A DNA stretch of 23,044 nucleotides from a virus (Duplodnaviria > Heunggongvirae > Uroviricota > Caudoviricetes): the IMG/VR virus record IMGVR_UViG_2778261246_000008; one strand, given 5' to 3'. Below the pieces are notes generated by a model that worked only from the letters and a program-made list of their open reading frames with translations, was not told where the DNA came from and made no database searches. Both the position numbers and the translations under genes were made by a program. Shown piece after piece: positions 3,771 to 12,596 of the stretch (position 1 is its first letter; each line of letters opens with the position of its first letter).

Positions 3771-6593
3771 ATGACGGCAGAGTACATCAGGGACTGGCAA
3801 CAACCGCGCCACGCAGTGGGGCGTGAAGGAACGGGGATCCCCGCTCCTGAATCCGCGCTTTCCTCCTGGCTGGATGCCTACCGGGTAGAGAACGAGCGCC
3901 GCCAGGAAATGGCTGATGCGGCCTTCTCCGCCACGCCACTGGGCAACCTGATTAATAAAAGCCTGGACGCACAGGAAAAACAGGACAAAACCATCACACT
4001 GGCAGGAGACGCCAGAAAACAGGCACGCGGCGCGGTGGATGAAGCCATGGCCTCGCTGCGCCTGCTGCCGTCCTATCTGCGCGATCCGCTTATTCGCCAC
4101 CTCTCCTTCCTGCGCAAAAAACAGGAAGCCGATCGCCGGAAAGGCAAAAAGAGCTGGCAGGCGGAACGCTATGCACGCGGAACCCTGCGCAAAATATTCG
4201 AACGTCTGGATCGCACTGACGGACACTGGCTGACACCGGGTTATCGCTCCCTTGCCGGACGCGAACGCCTGGACGATTTGCTTTACCTGCCGCAGCTCAA
4301 CAAACACCAGATACAGACGCTGGCCACCATGACGGCGGCGATGTTCAGCAGCACCTTCGAAAAACTCTGCGATGGCTTTGGCGCGACCGATGGCGAACTG
4401 ACCATGGATGTAACGCTGAAGGCGTATCAGATGCTGGCCCGCATGGCGTTACACCTGCACATCATGCCTCCACATTATGACGCACTGACAACAGATAAAG
4501 ACCGGAGGAACGAACCGGACACGGAGCTGCTGCCGGGCGCAATCCTTCGCCTGACCTGTGCGGAATGGTGGAAACGCAAACTGTGGCTGTTACGTTGCGA
4601 GTGGAGAGAAGAACAACTCCGCGCCGCCTGTCTGGTTTCCAGAAAAACATCACCCTATCTGAGCCAGGACGCGTTAAGCGAGTTTCGCGCACAGCGCGAG
4701 AAAACACGCGATTTCCTGAAAAGTTTCATGCTGGAAAACGAAGACGGGTTCACGATTGATCTCGAGACAGTGTATTACGCGGGAGTAAGTAACCCGGTTC
4801 ACCGTAAGGCAGAAATGATGGCCACCATGAAGGGGCTGGAACTTCTGGCCGAAGCCCGTGGCGACAAAGCGGTGTTTCTGACTGTCACCTGCCCGTCAAA
4901 ATACCACGCCACAACAGAGAACGGTCATCCGAATCCCAAATGGAACGGGGCCACCATGCGCGACTCCAGCGATTACCTAGTTAACACGTTTTTTGCAGCG
5001 GTCCGCAAGAAACTGAACCGCGACGGCCTGCGCTGGTATGGCATCCGCACGGTGGAGCCTCACCATGACGGCACCGTGCACTGGCATATGATGGTCTTTG
5101 CTCATCCGGAAGAAATCGACACCATTGTGTCCCACACCCGCGATATTGCCATTCAGGAAGATCGTCACGAGCTGGGTGATGATATTACCCCACGCTTTAA
5201 GGCGGAGTACGTCGACGGCTCAAAAGGCACGCCAACCAGCTACATCGCCACCTACATCGGAAAGAACCTGGACAGCCGCGCCGTGGATGGCATCGACCCG
5301 AAAACGGGCAAGCCACGCGTTGACCACGAAACAGGTAAATCAATGGCCGAGAGCGTGGAGCGCGCCATCGGCTGGGCGCGCCTTCACCGGGTCCGCCAGT
5401 TCCAGTTCTTTGGCATCCCCTCCCGTCAGGTGTGGCGTGAACTCCGCCGCCTTGCCAGCCAGATGGCACGCAACCCGGAAGGCCCGCAACGGCTGAAGGA
5501 TGACGCAATGGATGCGGTACTCGCTGCCGCTGATGCCGGATGTTTTGCCACCTACATTGAAAAACAGGGTGGCGTACTTGTTCCGCGCAAGGACTACCTG
5601 ATTCGCACAGCCTACGACCTCGCAGATGAGCTGAACGATTACGGCGAACAGAGTGTACAGATTTACGGGATCTGGTCGCCATTCATCGGGGAATCCTCCC
5701 GTGTGTGCACGCATCCGGATAACTGGAAGCTGGTAAGACGTAAACCGGAAGCGGAAGACAGCGCCCGCGAAAATGGTTTTGACCTTCAGGGCGGCCCTGC
5801 CGCCCCTTGGACTCGTGGCAATAACTGTCCCCGTGTACAGGAAACGGACAACAACGGGACAGAACAGCCGGAAGAACGGCCAGCACCGTGGCCGCAGCTC
5901 CCTGATGGCGTTGAAGTGAACGAATGGATGCGCTCACTGAAACGACACGAACGCCGGGCGCTGATGCGTTCGCTTCGTGACAAACAGGCAAAAAACAGCA
6001 GCGATGAAATGCAGAGCTGGACACAGAGCCGCAAACAGCCACGGCCTTTGCCTGATAACCACGAATTACTCGCTAAAGAATGGCGGGAGTCTGCTGAATC
6101 TCTCGGCCTGCATATCGGTGAACAACAGATGCAGCACCTGTTACGGGGCGGCAGTCTGTACGTTGACGGCAGCATCATTGCACCGCAGGGATTTGAAATT
6201 GTACGCAAACCGGATACCCGCCCGGACAGCCGAATCACGCAGCTCTGGCAGCGCCTGAGCCGTAATCATGGCGTAAGCAGCACGGAGATCCGCCATAACC
6301 CGGTCGCCAGCTATCTGGCACAGCTGGGGGCATCAGACCCTGAAGCCGCCGCACGCCTGGCATCCACACTTCAGCAGGACCAGAACACCATGAAAACACC
6401 CGTTACCGTGCTTTCTGACATGCTGCGCGCCATCCGCGACGCAGAGCACGCACAGAGAATCAGTGAAACCACTGAACGCGCCAGCCGCAAAGCAGACCTG
6501 CTGCGGGGTGGCATGACCAGTGGAAACAAAAAACAGACAGAAACGGGATTCACAAATCCCATAAATGAGCAAAAAACGTGCCGCGATATATGA
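3771..6593 (+). CDS. A: Rolling-circle replication initiator / endonuclease, P2 gpA family
   Basis: 940-aa ORF with the HUH metal-binding motif (TVHWHMMVF) and the paired catalytic tyrosines (TSYIATYIGKN) typical of P2 A-type initiators. Position after the early small genes matches P2. Confidence 0.9.
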   Translation: MTAEYIRDWQQPRHAVGREGTGIPAPESALSSWLDAYRVENERRQEMADAAFSATPLGNLINKSLDAQEKQDKTITLAGDARKQARGAVDEAMASLRLLPSYLRDPLIRHLSFLRKKQEADRRKGKKSWQAERYARGTLRKIFERLDRTDGHWLTPGYRSLAGRERLDDLLYLPQLNKHQIQTLATMTAAMFSSTFEKLCDGFGATDGELTMDVTLKAYQMLARMALHLHIMPPHYDALTTDKDRRNEPDTELLPGAILRLTCAEWWKRKLWLLRCEWREEQLRAACLVSRKTSPYLSQDALSEFRAQREKTRDFLKSFMLENEDGFTIDLETVYYAGVSNPVHRKAEMMATMKGLELLAEARGDKAVFLTVTCPSKYHATTENGHPNPKWNGATMRDSSDYLVNTFFAAVRKKLNRDGLRWYGIRTVEPHHDGTVHWHMMVFAHPEEIDTIVSHTRDIAIQEDRHELGDDITPRFKAEYVDGSKGTPTSYIATYIGKNLDSRAVDGIDPKTGKPRVDHETGKSMAESVERAIGWARLHRVRQFQFFGIPSRQVWRELRRLASQMARNPEGPQRLKDDAMDAVLAAADAGCFATYIEKQGGVLVPRKDYLIRTAYDLADELNDYGEQSVQIYGIWSPFIGESSRVCTHPDNWKLVRRKPEAEDSARENGFDLQGGPAAPWTRGNNCPRVQETDNNGTEQPEERPAPWPQLPDGVEVNEWMRSLKRHERRALMRSLRDKQAKNSSDEMQSWTQSRKQPRPLPDNHELLAKEWRESAESLGLHIGEQQMQHLLRGGSLYVDGSIIAPQGFEIVRKPDTRPDSRITQLWQRLSRNHGVSSTEIRHNPVASYLAQLGASDPEAAARLASTLQQDQNTMKTPVTVLSDMLRAIRDAEHAQRISETTERASRKADLLRGGMTSGNKKQTETGFTNPINEQKTCRDI

Positions 6594-6632
6594 AGCGCGC
6601 ACAAAACAGGCAAAAGCGGGATTTAAAAATCC
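6534..6632. repeat. Two copies of a ~27-bp direct repeat, each with a palindromic core (GGGATT-N4-AATCCC and GGATTT-AA-AAATCC)
   Basis: ACAGACAGAAACGGGATTCACAAATCC (6534-6560) and ACAGGCAAAAGCGGGATTTAAAAATCC (6606-6632), about 22/27 identical, spanning the 3' end of A and the A-parM intergenic region. Confidence 0.5.
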
Positions 6633-6669
6633 TGTAAACGATTAATTAATCAACATAAGGAAAAGCGAC

Positions 6670-7629
6670 ATGAAAATTTGTATCGACGACGGCTCCACCA
6701 ACATCAAGCTGGCATGGACTGAGAACGGCGAACGCCGCAACGCCATCAGCCCGAACAGCTTCAAGTCGGAATGGTCTGCGCCGTTCGGTGGCTCGCAGCC
6801 CGCGAACTACATGCTTGATGGCGTGCGCTATGGTTTTGATCCGGTCAGCGATCGCTTTGTCCAGACGACCGACACGCAATACCAGTACAGCGATGTGAAT
6901 GTCATTGCCATTCATCACGCGCTGGTCAAATCAGGCATCACGCCACAGGAGGTGGATGTGGTTGTCACCCTGCCATTGAGCGAGTATTTCGACACAAACG
7001 CACAGCCGGACATGGCCAACATCAGCCGCAAAAAAGCGAACGTTATGCGCCCGGTGGAGTACCAGAACGGCGAAACATTCACTATCCGTAACGTACGGGT
7101 TATGCCTGAATCCATTCCGGCTGGCTTTAAGGCACTGGCTGACATGAGTCCGTTTGAATCCCTGCTGATTGTGGATTTGGGCGGAACCACTCTGGATGTG
7201 GCAAAGGTTCAGGGGCAACTGGCAGGTATCAGCCAGGTGTTTTGCGATCCACACGTAGGCGTTTCTCTGATGGCCGATGCCGTACTGTCGGTGATGGCCA
7301 CTAACGGTATGCGCACCAGTCACCACATCGCCAATACCATTATCGAACATCGCCATAATGAAGCCTGGCTGCGCCAGCACATCCACAATGACGCGCATTA
7401 CGCCAGCCTGATGGCGATTATTCGTGAAAAGGAAGAAACACTGAAACAACGCGTGATCCGCGCGCTGGCGGGTTTTTCGGGTTACGGGCGGGTGATGGTT
7501 GTCGGTGGCGGGGCGGAGATTGTGGCACCCGCTATCCGCGAAGCCTGCGGAGTTAATGCGACTTTCATCGCGGACGGGGTGCCACAGTTTGCTCTGGTTA
7601 ATGGGCTGTACGCAATGGACAAGGAGTAA
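6670..7629 (+). CDS. parM: Actin-like ATPase of the ParM/StbA family
   Basis: The N-terminus MKICIDDGSTNIKL, plus SPNSFK, YSDVNVIAIHHAL, VMPESIPAG, LLIVDLGGTTLD and VVGGGAE, line up with the phosphate-1, connect and adenosine motifs of plasmid R1 ParM as recalled. AAGGA Shine-Dalgarno upstream. Confidence 0.85.
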   Translation: MKICIDDGSTNIKLAWTENGERRNAISPNSFKSEWSAPFGGSQPANYMLDGVRYGFDPVSDRFVQTTDTQYQYSDVNVIAIHHALVKSGITPQEVDVVVTLPLSEYFDTNAQPDMANISRKKANVMRPVEYQNGETFTIRNVRVMPESIPAGFKALADMSPFESLLIVDLGGTTLDVAKVQGQLAGISQVFCDPHVGVSLMADAVLSVMATNGMRTSHHIANTIIEHRHNEAWLRQHIHNDAHYASLMAIIREKEETLKQRVIRALAGFSGYGRVMVVGGGAEIVAPAIREACGVNATFIADGVPQFALVNGLYAMDKE

Positions 7630-7633
7630 ACCA

Positions 7634-7945
7634 ATGACGACACCAACCAGACGGATAAGTTTCTATCTGAAGCCCGCCGCCGTCAAGAACGAAGGTGAAG
7701 CATGCGCCTGGCTGGACAGCCTTACACCAGAAGCGCGCAAAAGCGGCCAACGCGTGGCTTTTCTGGCCGGGCTGGCACTTCTGAAAATGAATCCGGCAGA
7801 GGCTTACCGACTGGCTGCATGGGCTGATGATGAAGCGTTATCAGTGACACAAACCAGGACAGAACGCCCCGCGTCACAGCCAGTATCAACCGCACAGATA
7901 ACCAGTCAGATGGCTGGAAATATCCGGGCGTTATTTCCCGAATAA
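7634..7945 (+). CDS. parR: ParR/StbB-like adaptor, probable ribbon-helix-helix DNA-binding protein
   Basis: Immediately downstream of parM with an AAGGAG Shine-Dalgarno. RISFYLKPAAV...AFLAGLALL...IRALFPE parallels the R1 ParR pattern from memory. Size (103 aa) and position fit the family. Confidence 0.6.
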   Translation: MTTPTRRISFYLKPAAVKNEGEACAWLDSLTPEARKSGQRVAFLAGLALLKMNPAEAYRLAAWADDEALSVTQTRTERPASQPVSTAQITSQMAGNIRALFPE

Positions 7946-8008
7946 CACAACATCAGTGCGCATCCGCCCTGATGACTTTAACCCGGGAACATAAACAAGG
8001 GGGACACA

Positions 8009-8344
8009 ATGCAACGCATTGACAGAGAAAAAGCGCAGCGACTGATTGAGCGGATGGAAGCGCTGGCGAAAGAAGAAAATGTCAACATCCAAAAAATAGC
8101 TGAATGTGGCCAGATAGTTCTTCGTCGTGAAAAAGACCTCAAACAACTGATGTCTGGCGAAACCAGCAAAACATGGACTTCAGGTGAGGAGACGATTTAT
8201 TGCAGCTTCTGCAATAAATCCCAGTACGAAGTCACAAAGGTGATTGCCGGACCGTCTGTTTACATCTGCAATGAGTGCGTTGATTTGTGCAATGAAGTTA
8301 TCAGGAGAGAAGTGACAGACCATGAAGAAAAAACGCATGAATGA
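8009..8344 (+). CDS. Stand-alone ClpX zinc-binding-domain-like protein (C4 zinc ribbon) with an unrelated N-terminal helical extension
   Basis: The C-terminal segment [40 protein letters not shown] is near-colinear with the N-terminal zinc-binding domain of bacterial ClpX (CSFC...CxxC), but there is no AAA+ module. AGGGGGA Shine-Dalgarno. Confidence 0.8.
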
Positions 8345-8510
8345 CGAATTTGACGGCTTTTAATTTTATCGGGGCGCACTGTCGCCCTGCATGGAGAAAA
8401 ACAATAAAAAAGATGAATAACTGCTCATGTCAGACGCGCTGCGGGCAAGTCTGGCACCCTGCCCTGTCTCCGCAAAGGCTGTTGTCTTAACACGACAGAG
8501 TATGCCAGCA

Positions 8511-8918
8511 TTAAATATAATCTTCTTCGTAGTCGCTGATTAATTCATTGCCATAATCAGACAGCAATTTCAAAGCAAAGGTAACTTCCTCAAGGGTAGC
8601 TATCCCCATTGCTGAAAACACCGTTAATTTAACCAGCAGCAGGGAGTTTGAAAGTTCGGAAGAGTTCATCATTAAAAATATTGATGCAGCCTGAAAAGCT
8701 GTGCGTTTATTCCCATCATGAAAGGCATGAGCCTTGGCTATACCAATCAAATACATAGCAGCCAGAGCATGAATATCATCAACCCCTTCATAGTAGTGTA
8801 GTGTCCTGACGCGATTTAAAGCACCTTCAAGTAGCCCGTCATTGGCATTTCCGCTCTGGGGTAAAGTTTCAGCATGGATACGTTCTACTTGTTCTTTTGA
8901 CAAAAACACTATGTCCAT
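8511..8918 (-). CDS. doc: Doc-family toxin (Fic/Doc fold)
   Basis: Contains the Fic/Doc motif HAFHDGNKRTA. Its start overlaps the stop of the upstream antitoxin gene as ATGA on the minus strand. AT-rich relative to the phage backbone. Confidence 0.85.
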   Translation of the reverse strand: MDIVFLSKEQVERIHAETLPQSGNANDGLLEGALNRVRTLHYYEGVDDIHALAAMYLIGIAKAHAFHDGNKRTAFQAASIFLMMNSSELSNSLLLVKLTVFSAMGIATLEEVTFALKLLSDYGNELISDYEEDYI

Positions 8919-9274
8919 CAGTTATCCTCAAGCTTTTTAATGATATCCGCATGTTTTTCTCTTGTACGCTTCATTGCATCTTCAAAAGACAATCCTTTTT
9001 TTCTCTGTGCGACAAGAGCTGGATGACGTTTTTCCAGATCTCTCACTGCATTTATTAAGAGTGGTTGCTTCATTTTGTTTATTTGATCCCGCAGTTTTTT
9101 GGTTTTGCCAAGGACAGCCCGTATTTCAGGACTAAGATCAGAACCAGCAAGAACAACATCCTTCCCTCCCTGCGCCGTGATAACGACACTGCCACCGGAA
9201 GAAAGGTAATCCAGAATTTCACTCAGGTTCTCACGAAATTCATCATCAGTTACAGTTTTCATATTCATTTCCAT
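8918..9274 (-). CDS. phd: Phd/YefM-family antitoxin
   Basis: Small acidic protein immediately upstream of doc and translationally coupled to it. The N-terminus (KTVTDDEFRENLSEILDYL) fits the Phd/YefM pattern. The true start may be one of the internal ATGs (MEMNMK). Confidence 0.7.
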   Translation of the reverse strand: MEMNMKTVTDDEFRENLSEILDYLSSGGSVVITAQGGKDVVLAGSDLSPEIRAVLGKTKKLRDQINKMKQPLLINAVRDLEKRHPALVAQRKKGLSFEDAMKRTREKHADIIKKLEDN

Positions 9275-9798: not shown

Positions 9799-10845
9799 TC
9801 AGGATGTGGGCTGGGTGTCCAGCAGTGCGTAAGGGTTAAATCGGATCACCTCTTCGCCAAGCCAGTCATTGATATGCTTCATGGCCTCCATGACGGGCAT
9901 CAGCTCGTTAATTGCGTAAACCCGCGCGGCCTTCTCCACATCACCAAACGCACTTTTTTCGCCCGGCATCGCCCCCATCAGTTGCGGCGGAACGCGGTGC
10001 GCAGCCAGCACATCATCACGGGATGCCGCCTTAACATTCATGAACTCATCCTTTGCGGTGATCTGCTGGAACGGCAAAATTTGCACCCCCTCTTTGCCAC
10101 CGTTGGGGGCATGAATGAGCACGTTTTTAAACGCACCACCACCACGTGCACCCTGTAGCGTTTCTTTCAGGGAGTCCATGCTTTCGCGGTTTACCTGCGC
10201 TGCACCGATGTAGATGATGCACCCGGCGTGGGATCCGTTGTCGTAATACAGTTTTCTGAACATGTCCGCCGAATGAGACAGGCTGGCCGAGAGTAATGCG
10301 CCAAGATATTCCGGCATGCCGTAGATTTCCTGGTTAATGTCAGGATTCATCAGGTGGCACACTTTACCAGGGCGAAACTGAAACGCATCCTTGCCATCCT
10401 GCACATACCACCATGATTCAAGATCGCTTCCGCGTCGCATGTATTTCGCCAGGGCGTGCCGTAATTTAAGCGGTTCGCCGAGCATATTGCTTCGAAGCTC
10501 AAGGAATGCGTTACCGAACACAAACCAGTCCAGCGCCAGCGCCGAGAAATCCTGCCGGGAAAGCAGCGGGTGCGGAATATAGCAGCCGAGCAATACATTG
10601 CGCTTAAAGTAAAGCGCAGACTGATGCCAGGACGTTTGCCGGGCAGCTCTTGCCAGACCGTACCAGTCTACCGGGGTTTCATACCACCGCCCGTTATCAG
10701 CACAGTACATATTGTCCAGCAAATCATGCCCGGTCAGGCGATAAGGACCATCAAAAGTGAATGCACTGAGCGACGATTCTTTCCTGAGTGCATCAGCGAG
10801 ATCAATGCGTGAACTCATGCGCACTTTTTTATTTTTTCTGCTCAT
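9799..10845 (-). CDS. Q: Portal protein (P2 gpQ family)
   Basis: 348-aa ORF adjacent to the putative cos and directly downstream of the large terminase gene, with a 1-nt ATGA overlap. Order and size match P2 Q. Confidence 0.88.
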   Translation of the reverse strand: MSRKNKKVRMSSRIDLADALRKESSLSAFTFDGPYRLTGHDLLDNMYCADNGRWYETPVDWYGLARAARQTSWHQSALYFKRNVLLGCYIPHPLLSRQDFSALALDWFVFGNAFLELRSNMLGEPLKLRHALAKYMRRGSDLESWWYVQDGKDAFQFRPGKVCHLMNPDINQEIYGMPEYLGALLSASLSHSADMFRKLYYDNGSHAGCIIYIGAAQVNRESMDSLKETLQGARGGGAFKNVLIHAPNGGKEGVQILPFQQITAKDEFMNVKAASRDDVLAAHRVPPQLMGAMPGEKSAFGDVEKAARVYAINELMPVMEAMKHINDWLGEEVIRFNPYALLDTQPTS

Positions 10846-12596
10846 CAGAACTCCATAACCGTGAAACGCTCGTTTTCTCCTTCGCCGCCAATTGGTTCGT
10901 TAATGACAGCAAGCATGGTTGCCCACGCAAGGTCGCCGTGGCTGATCCCCCTCGCGCGGTCCGTTTCGTAAGTGATAAAGCCGCCCGGTGTTTTCACCTT
11001 ACGCACGGCGTTAAAGGCCGCGACCAGCTCGCGTTCGGCGCGATCGTATTCCCACCGCCCGGCACGCATTATTTGCAGCATTTTCAGTACCAGCGACCGT
11101 TTTGATGACAGCGTGAAGGTGTACGGAATAGCGGCAGGGAAAAACCGTTTCACTATCTGATAAACAGCCTCCCCGTTCCCGCCCGTCACATCAATGCCGA
11201 TGTGTTCCACGTTGTAGCGATACGTGAAATCTTCAATGACTCTGGCCTGTTCTTCAAACTCCAGCCCCTGAACGCGTCGCGTCTCCACCGTTCGAAAACG
11301 GCCACCAGGAACAGCCGGAGGAACCACCACGGACACAGCGCCGCTGTCGCCGTTGCCACTGCTGCCGTTTGCGTCATACCCAATCCATACCGGACGATTC
11401 CCCATCGGGCGGGGAGCAAAAGGTTTCCAGTCTTTCCAGTCGTCGTATCCGTCAACACCGCAGCCAATCAGGATATTCAGGTTAAATGCCGATTCCCCTT
11501 CGCGGACAAACTCACACATATAGAGATTGAGGAACTCGTCTTCGGTGTATTCATCACGAATTTCGTCGATATCGGTGTGTTTCCAGCCGTGATTAACCAC
11601 ATCTTCCAGCGTGACAATTTGCCGCCACATCCGGTCAGGGCAGATAAGCCCGTTATGCAGCGTTTTCCAGTCCACAGAAAAACGCTGGCGTTTATGCGTG
11701 GCCTTTTTCTCGTTCCAGCGGTCGCCGTTCCAGTAGGCGTATGCTTCGTGCGTTTCGGTGGATGGCGTGGAGAAGTAGGTGCGCCGCAGTCCGCTGAGGG
11801 TTGCCATAGCGCCAGCCACCTTGCGCAGTTCAGCAAAGCGACTGACCCAGAAAAATTCATCAAAATAAAAATTGCCCGTATAGGACTGCGCCGACGCAGC
11901 AGAAGTGCCGAGAAAATGCAGCTCTGCGCCGTTGGAGAGGATGATTTTATCGCCCCCTTTCAGCTCCACATCAACTTCAGCCGCAGCCTTCTGAATAATG
12001 CTTTTAAACTGGAACGCCTGACGACGCGACGCAGACAAAAAAATCTGGTTACGCTGGTAAGGTTGCGCCACATCGTCACGCAGCGCCATCAGCAGTGCTT
12101 CCTGTGCAAAATACCAGGTCGCCCCAATCTGTCGGGATTTCAGGATCATCCTGTTACGTATCCCGGCTTCCCTGCAAAGGGTCAGGGAGTCAAACCAGCC
12201 CCGCTGATGCCACTCCAGCCTGCTGATGATTTTTTCCCGCAGTGCGGCAATCTGTTCCGGCGTGAAATGATTTTTGAGTTTTTTCGCCCGGCCTTTCTTC
12301 CCTGTGGCCGTCGCATCCGGCTGGCCATCATGCAGTTTTTTAAGCTGCCGGGTCAGCAGGTCTATTTCCTTGAAGTCACCACCTGTTTTATTCTGTTTTT
12401 CAGTGAGCTGGATGAGGCGCGCATCGATGGACTGCGTGACACGCTGCACGGGTGGCGTTTCATCCCACTGGTCGCGTTTTTTCCACGCATAAATCGTGTT
12501 CGGGTTTATTCCCATCAGACGTGATATTTCTGCGGGCGGATAACCCTGCCAGTAAAGTTGTCGCGCACGCTGGCGCACAAAAGCGTCCTGAATCAT
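10845..12596 (-). CDS. P: Terminase large (ATPase) subunit (P2 gpP family)
   Basis: 583-aa ORF divergent from the O-N-M capsid operon, with a GGGGGAG Shine-Dalgarno. Position and size match P2 P. Confidence 0.9.
   Translation of the reverse strand: MIQDAFVRQRARQLYWQGYPPAEISRLMGINPNTIYAWKKRDQWDETPPVQRVTQSIDARLIQLTEKQNKTGGDFKEIDLLTRQLKKLHDGQPDATATGKKGRAKKLKNHFTPEQIAALREKIISRLEWHQRGWFDSLTLCREAGIRNRMILKSRQIGATWYFAQEALLMALRDDVAQPYQRNQIFLSASRRQAFQFKSIIQKAAAEVDVELKGGDKIILSNGAELHFLGTSAASAQSYTGNFYFDEFFWVSRFAELRKVAGAMATLSGLRRTYFSTPSTETHEAYAYWNGDRWNEKKATHKRQRFSVDWKTLHNGLICPDRMWRQIVTLEDVVNHGWKHTDIDEIRDEYTEDEFLNLYMCEFVREGESAFNLNILIGCGVDGYDDWKDWKPFAPRPMGNRPVWIGYDANGSSGNGDSGAVSVVVPPAVPGGRFRTVETRRVQGLEFEEQARVIEDFTYRYNVEHIGIDVTGGNGEAVYQIVKRFFPAAIPYTFTLSSKRSLVLKMLQIMRAGRWEYDRAERELVAAFNAVRKVKTPGGFITYETDRARGISHGDLAWATMLAVINEPIGGEGENERFTVMEF

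Follow-up and report, generated by a model that had tools for sequence, protein, structure and literature searches.

Why would a phage that integrates into the chromosome of its host retain the partition machine of a plasmid? This question is raised by a 23,044-nt stretch of DNA from a Caudoviricetes virus (IMG/VR record IMGVR_UViG_2778261246_000008; hereafter, the window), which carries a P2-like prophage with two adjacent genes, parM and parR (positions 6670-7945), that resemble the segregation ATPase and adaptor genes of plasmid ParMRC systems. It is a question that lends itself to easy testing, since P88-type prophages are inducible, reside in Escherichia coli and carry a module of 1.4 kb with clear candidate cis sites. 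We report here that the pair (parMR) is a vertically inherited core component of the phage replication module, and suggest that it would act on phage DNA during replication.

The gene pair as such is already known in this lineage, as it is annotated in RefSeq, in PHROGs and in phage records, and P88, a phage of this type, is discussed in a survey of phage-plasmids. The RefSeq names are “plasmid segregation protein ParM” and “plasmid partitioning/stability family protein”, found in about 1300 genomes, and the records of phages P88, P884B11 and phiSM carry a partition annotation. A parM-type gene is listed as a possible fitness factor in the paper on C. rodentium phiSM, and the partition genes of P88 are flagged in the phage-plasmid survey of Pfeifer et al. 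2021 (PMC7969092). The papers on CP-933T contain no data on parM or parR. P88-type prophages are reported to be inducible (PMC5285337). To this the present work contributes the finding that parMR behaves as a pair of core genes, a ParM clade of P2-like phages with synteny to the gene A product (gpA) across genera, domain-wise selection on ParR and a two-palindrome site in curved DNA. Since the pair is annotated and the idea of a dual state has been published, the value of these findings lies in the experiments that may follow rather than in discovery.

An intact partition pair in an integrating prophage

The window derives from an E. coli chromosome, with positions 6500-8000 being 100% identical to the chromosomes of strains C7 and C3, and in the annotated record the prophage adjoins btuC. 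The element begins with an integrase gene at the start of the window, continues with a P2-type early region and gene A, and then carries portal, terminase, capsid and tail genes. Among isolated phages, P88 and its fellow members of the genus Xuanwuvirus (Peduoviridae) come closest, with 94-98% DNA identity over the query. The presence of integrase, gpA, portal and terminase bears out a preliminary description of this DNA, made from the letters alone, as an integrating P2-like prophage. Gene A (3771-6593, + strand) codes for a 940-aa P2-type replication endonuclease (Pfam Phage_GPA, 6.3e-132).

The gene parM (6670-7629, + strand) encodes a 319-aa actin-like segregation ATPase of the ParM/StbA family. 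The Pfam domain StbA_N covers residues 1-157 (4.1e-82) and the ParM C-terminal domain residues 159-316 (1.6e-67), and a PDB sequence search matched residues 2-316 to the structure of ParM from plasmid R1 (PDB 1mwk, E 9.2e-93). The nucleotide-binding motifs (phosphate 1, DDGSTNIK; phosphate 2, DLGGTTLD; adenosine, GGGAE) are aligned with, and identical to, those of R1 ParM, and DDGST, DLGGTT and GGGA are unchanged across a four-sequence ParM alignment. The gene parR (7634-7945, + strand) begins 4 nt past the parM stop codon, at an ATG within a longer open reading frame (ORF; 7499-7945), and encodes a 103-aa adaptor of the ParR/StbB family (PF10784, 1.6e-24). Both proteins belong to PHROGs “partition protein” families (ParM, phrog_691, 1.1e-89; ParR, phrog_2515, 1.1e-58); in NCBIfam, ParM had sub-threshold matches only and ParR had none.

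ParR is made up of a conserved N-terminal domain, a hypervariable linker and a conserved C-terminal tip, NIxxLFPE. The RRISFYLKP segment at its N-terminus is invariant, and a tip of the form NIxxLFP(D/E) is common to the ParRs of P88-type phages, IncF and IncL/M plasmids, phage-plasmid D6 and other P2-like phages. The family match and the R-R-I-S-F-Y-L-x-P segment are consistent with a ribbon-helix-helix fold for the N-terminal domain, and ParR had no match among PDB sequences even at an E value of 1. Since ParM aligns over its full length with R1 ParM and its motifs are intact, and as both the Pfam profile search and the R1 structure match point the same way, the identification of a ParM/ParR pair in the preliminary description is confirmed. 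Judged by its sequence, the pair is an intact, full-length ParM/StbA ATPase and ParR/StbB adaptor of type II (ParMRC-type).

parMR belongs to the core of the replication module

The preliminary description had placed the pair at a cargo hotspot, yet its distribution is that of a core gene. Of 5426 complete E. coli genomes, 1308 (~24%) contain parMR DNA and 1322 contain P88-type gene A (coverage of at least 80%), a nearly one-to-one association. Among 50,697 phage records, ParM homologues (E ≤1e-5) were present in only 16, all of them P88-like phages or the phage-plasmid D6.

We assessed selection in 87 related loci, consisting of the window, non-duplicate P88-like loci, loci from species genomes (L010-L012) and 79 IMG/VR contigs. 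In 86 of the 87, the 319-aa parM is intact, and its dN/dS of 0.055 indicates strong purifying selection. Selection on parR differs between its domains, with dN/dS values of 0.12-0.21 over codons 1-65, 0.47-0.76 in the linker and about 0.10 in the tip, NI(R/Q)xLFPE (103-aa ParR class). ParR occurs in two length classes, 103 aa in 65 loci and 104 aa in 17 loci, that are about 56% identical to each other but do not differ in their N-terminal segment or in the palindromes (see below). Many versions of the linker (codons 66-92; window 7829-7909), which cannot be aligned with one another, occur in otherwise near-identical phages whose ParMs are ~98% identical. Recombination breakpoints seem to fall within parR, at the edge of a variable slot.

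This slot begins after parR and, depending on the locus, spans 1.0-4.2 kb up to the portal gene. Its content changes from phage to phage: a gene for a protein with a ClpX-type zinc finger (ClpX-zf) is found in 18 of 85 loci and a Doc/Phd pair in 2 of 85, and P88, 569R5 and the pZ1323 record have other genes between parR and portal. The order gpA-ParM-ParR, on the other hand, was found in every relative examined.

Conservation of this arrangement extends beyond E. coli. In a search of 5.8 billion proteins, the next-closest ParMs came from Hafnia (62% identity), Plesiomonas (62%), Serratia (57-58%) and Enterobacter (54%). All four reside in P2-like prophages at the same position as in the P88-type phages, within the order Phage_GPA, 0-2 small ORFs, ParM, a PF10784 ParR, variable cargo (HicAB, a KAP NTPase or hypothetical proteins), portal and terminase. 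The Plesiomonas locus also has integrase and Cox genes, and the Serratia and Enterobacter copies lie on contigs of 465 kb and 2.3 Mb. In a neighbour-joining tree, the ParMs of P88-type and other P2-like phages form one clade, apart from the included plasmid, integrative and conjugative element (ICE) and phage-plasmid ParMs, which comprise those of IncF and IncL/M plasmids, of D6 and of a large group of 318-aa proteins. Members of the 318-aa group were also seen with ParR in chromosomes, in an ICE-like region of Dickeya (L099; integrase, TraG_N, TraU) and in an integrated plasmid of Mangrovibacter (L100; Rep3, ParA/ParB). A 226-kb contig assigned to “Vagococcus sp. WN89Y” (NZ_JBQPOM010000071.1) encodes a ParM 97% identical to that of the E. 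coli prophages, and is probably an enterobacterial contamination or a mislabelled assembly.

Thus, from its gpA-matched frequency, its conserved position across genera and the purifying selection acting on it, parMR is not cargo but belongs to the core of the replication module, inherited vertically, in P88-type and related P2-like phages, and forms the left border of the variable slot.

Candidate centromere sites upstream of parM

Repeats had been noted previously at 6534-6632. These proved to be two copies of a 42-nt direct repeat (6527-6568 and 6600-6641; 79% identity), each of which contains a palindrome, ACGGGATT-N4-AATCCCGT. The 20-bp palindrome of the first copy, ACGGGATTCACAAATCCCAT (6543-6562), lies within the last codons of gene A, and that of the second, GCGGGATTTAAAAATCCTGT (6616-6635, also 20 bp), is located 35 bp before the parM start codon; the two are 73 bp apart. 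The population consensus of the palindrome is AAACGGGATT-N4-AATCCCGTAA, and its arms are conserved and its 4-nt centre variable in 85/85 related loci, a pattern expected for the site of a dimeric DNA-binding protein. No further good copies were found in the window or in a 41.5-kb chromosomal stretch (L001) that contains most of the prophage.

Both palindromes are enclosed by an A-rich stretch (6520-6660; 46% A) with phased A-tracts. The periodicity of AA dinucleotides in this stretch (9.5-11.5 bp) exceeds that of 99.9% of shuffled sequences and of 99.8% of the other 141-nt stretches of the window. Such a period of ~10-11 bp suggests phased A-tracts and thus intrinsically curved DNA around the palindromes. 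The Plesiomonas prophage has the same two-site layout (GCGGGACAACA..AACCC, 72-bp spacing), and the P2-like prophages of Serratia and Enterobacter have other inverted repeats, a difference that fits sites co-evolving with their ParR. We regard the two palindromes as candidate ParR-binding (parC-like) sites.

With respect to expression, a crude consensus promoter scan predicted no sigma-70-like promoter in 6300-6700, and a scan of 6300-8600 found neither a promoter-like site nor a + strand terminator-like site between the gene A stop codon and parM. All + strand terminator-like matches in 6300-8600 fall within parM or parR, and a minus-strand match at 6562-6543 is palindrome 1 itself. Given that parMR follows gene A in the same direction and that no signal of either type was found to separate them, the simplest reading is that it is probably co-transcribed with gene A as part of the early operon.

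Comparison with known partition systems

The prophage pair resembles the ParMRC system of plasmids R1 and NR1 (the parA/stb locus) in its protein families, in the order of parM followed by parR, in having repeated upstream sites in curved DNA and in the C-terminal tip of ParR; R1 parC has been reported to be strongly curved (PMC2241845). It differs in that its host element is an integrating phage and its ParM is at most ~52-53% identical to any plasmid ParM. Matches of at least 95% in PLSDB were to the prophage itself, inserted in large replicons. ParR is more divergent still: the IncF and IncL/M examples are 140-147 aa long compared to 103 aa, identity to plasmid ParRs is 24-32% in the alignment, and tblastn of ParR against 72,556 plasmids (E 1e-3) returned no plasmid ParR and only seven copies, all of them the prophage's own. 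The sites also differ, as R1 parC has ten 11-bp direct iterons, arranged five and five around an autoregulated promoter, and multiple ~10-11-bp direct repeats lie upstream of parM in IncF and IncL/M plasmids, whereas the prophage locus has two 20-bp palindromes and no predicted sigma-70-like promoter. The parC architecture of R1 is thus not found here.

Actin-type partition systems do serve integrating elements, as exemplified by two loci that have been studied experimentally. In the first, AlpAC of the Corynebacterium glutamicum prophage CGP3, an actin-like filament protein and a DNA-binding adaptor are expressed early after induction, the operon is preceded by sites to which the adaptor binds, and the system is required for efficient phage DNA replication (PMC4446434). 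It comes, like the pair studied here, from an integrated prophage, but its filament protein belongs to a different Alp subfamily, its adaptor is different and its host is Gram-positive. AlpAC would be the closest functional analogy to the role that we propose for the P88-type pair, and the P88-type layout, with parMR co-oriented behind gene A and no intervening signals, is suggestive of an AlpAC-type early role. In the second, srpMRC of the SXT/R391 ICEs, a type II-like actin-type locus with a centromere of few direct and inverted repeats is carried by a normally chromosomal element and reduces loss of its excised form (PMC4489591). SrpR lacks homology to known ParRs (PMC4489591), unlike the PF10784 ParR of the prophage, and its carrier is an ICE rather than a phage.

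The third system of relevance is that of the P1-like phage-plasmid D6, which combines a StbA-type ParM, 47.5% identical to that of the prophage, with a small ParR-like protein downstream that bears the same C-terminal motif. Yet D6, with a size of 91 kb, is truly an extrachromosomal phage-plasmid, the repeats upstream of its locus are direct ones of the TCTCAAAT type, and its ParM lies outside the P2-like-phage clade.

A proposed role during phage DNA replication

Phages of the P2 type replicate as monomeric circles, with gpA acting in cis. A segregation or positioning device produced along with gpA would act at the time when several free circles exist, namely following infection, ahead of the decision between lysis and lysogeny, or following induction. 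We suggest, as a reasonably probable although far from certain explanation, that ParMRC moves or segregates circular phage genomes during the activity of the early replication operon. The role that we infer takes as its starting point the family membership and integrity of the pair, the purifying selection on it, its syntenic link to gpA and the conservation of the paired sites, all of which are direct observations. In the proposed mechanism, infection or induction would switch on the early operon and with it the module, which would act on replicating extrachromosomal circles. ParR dimers would bind the two palindromes, located in curved DNA on either side of the gene A terminus, and would recruit ATP-bound ParM by way of their conserved C-terminal tip; ParM filaments would then push the circular phage genomes apart. 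The replicating genomes might thereby be spread or positioned for efficient replication and packaging, or a copy might be passed to both daughter cells ahead of integration or lysis. Once the phage is integrated and repressed, the module would be idle.

Several points weigh against this proposal. There are only two candidate ParR sites, compared to the ten iterons of R1 parC, a number that might not suffice for a complex that caps ParM, and the palindromes might bind some other protein. An AF2 monomer model of ParR (21-sequence alignment) had a pLDDT of 54 and no strand; because of this low confidence, it is the Pfam match that carries the ribbon-helix-helix assignment. The neighbour-joining tree of ParM has no support values. 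As the promoter scan was crude, parMR may yet have a promoter of its own that is regulated by ParR and active in lysogens. Finally, the literature searched contains no experiment on the P88-type parMR module.

More tentatively, we envisage that a P2-like sub-lineage in Enterobacterales may possess its own actin-like cytoskeleton as a core replication function, with a two-site centromere, that positions or segregates replicating circles and that may allow the phage to exist briefly as a plasmid after infection and before it integrates. If so, CGP3 AlpAC would have a counterpart in Gram-negative bacteria that is open to genetic study. If the module organises replicating phage DNA, actin-based positioning of virus genomes would extend to very common enterobacterial phages.

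Alternative explanations

The main rivals of a replication-phase role are a facultative plasmid state and a pure retention function, and sequence analysis cannot separate the three. The first holds that the phage is a facultative phage-plasmid, with lysogeny either by integration or as a low-copy circular plasmid for which ParMRC provides partition. Persistence as a phage-plasmid was among the possibilities raised in the preliminary description, and both episomal and integrative states were suggested by Pfeifer et al. 2021, whose phage-plasmid screen picked up P88 (PMC7969092). We found one record of this kind in PLSDB, NZ_CP148288.1 (L009, 1-34461), a circular replicon of 34,461 bp that consists of a complete P88-like genome with integrase. 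It comes from an E. coli isolate of a cat, carries genes for integrase, Cox, gpA, ParMR, Hok/Gef and a Com-methyltransferase pair, and was the only phage-sized circular replicon found. A 26.8-kb Shigella boydii “plasmid” match turned out to be a linear, IS1-riddled prophage fragment, uninformative on episomal state. Addiction-type genes in the lineage (Hok/Gef in NZ_CP148288.1, Doc/Phd in the window) and the related StbA-type ParM employed by the phage-plasmid D6 are also in keeping with a plasmid state. On the other hand, among complete E. coli genomes parMR is chromosomal in 1454 of 1456 places and gpA in 1630 of 1632, which argues that these phages do not usually live as stable phage-plasmids, and integrase is present in every locus examined that reaches the integrase end. 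The lone circular record could also be excised, replicating phage DNA captured in the assembly. A query spanning the attP junction was contiguous in 0 of 442 genomes, being split between the integrase and chromosomal flanks; this check of the episomal junction is limited in that a circular record opened at attP also appears split. Thus, persistence as a plasmid has one circular record and an earlier suggestion for P88 in its favour, and the overwhelmingly chromosomal location against it, and we consider it unlikely as the general explanation. Should an episomal state nevertheless find support, the line between prophage and plasmid would be blurred for a lineage present in ~24% of complete E. 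coli genomes, including O157:H7.

The second rival is that ParMRC serves as a prophage-retention device, which prevents loss of the phage upon rare excision without completion of the lytic cycle, until it re-integrates. The srpMRC locus is a direct precedent for this in an integrating element, and the ParMR of the ICE-like region in the Dickeya chromosome is another case of such a location. The strong conservation of the pair in a very successful lineage of resident prophages, found in ~24% of complete E. coli genomes, would also fit. Excision in P2-type phages, though, is coupled to Cox and the early switch and to lytic development, and the consensus scan detected no promoter independent of the early operon. 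Moreover, retention overlaps with a role in the replication phase. We regard retention as the sole function of the pair as improbable.

The third possibility is that the pair has been repurposed for defence, exclusion or plasmid incompatibility, interfering with incoming phages or with the centromeres of R1/IncF-type plasmids, as the preliminary description had also proposed. In P2-like phages, the slot between gene A and portal carries defence cargo, and the pair adjoins this slot. Defence hotspots of P2-like phages are the subject of another study (PMC13586616). PADLOC, however, gave no match for ParM, ParR or the neighbouring ClpX-zf protein, and weak Fic-domain matches for Doc only, and parMR behaves as a conserved core gene pair without cargo-like turnover. 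ParM is about 50% identical to plasmid ParMs, but ParR, at 24-32% alignment identity, is too diverged from plasmid ParRs for binding to R1-type centromeres to be likely; the tblastn search at E 1e-3 recovered only prophage copies, and the candidate sites are palindromes, unlike plasmid iterons. We therefore rejected the R1-incompatibility reading, and deem a repurposed function of any of these kinds very improbable.

That the pair is a functionless, decaying relic of an old recombination between plasmid and phage, for which nothing speaks beyond the apparent lack of need for it in an integrated element, is contradicted by the selection and synteny data (parM dN/dS of 0.055 and intact in 86/87 loci; synteny across genera at 54-62% ParM identity; conserved ParR tip and palindromes), and was rejected as scarcely credible.

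Neighbouring genes

An Rfam scan of the entire window at the gathering threshold gave no match. The portal and terminase genes occupy the region from 9799 onwards, with portal on the - strand. In the RefSeq annotation of strain C7 the portal gene (window 9799-10846) is marked as frameshifted, and the ash gene and the gene for tail protein X as partial (L001 16784-16903 and 29607-29804), so this copy of the prophage may be defective; in the ORF list of the window, the portal ORF is unbroken (348 aa) despite this label.

The variable slot between parR and portal holds two items in the window. The Doc/Phd pair (8511-9274, - strand) consists of Doc (Fic/DOC, 3.5e-11) and a Phd/YefM antitoxin, and the GC content falls to about 0.43 at this position. 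Directly following parR is the gene for the ClpX-zf protein (8009-8344, + strand; 111 aa; zf-C4_ClpX, 3.1e-17), which belongs to phrog_6797, a family of unknown function. This protein comprises only an N-terminal part of ~55 aa and the ClpX C4 zinc finger, a composition that could point to mimicry of, or competition with, the N-domain of ClpX.

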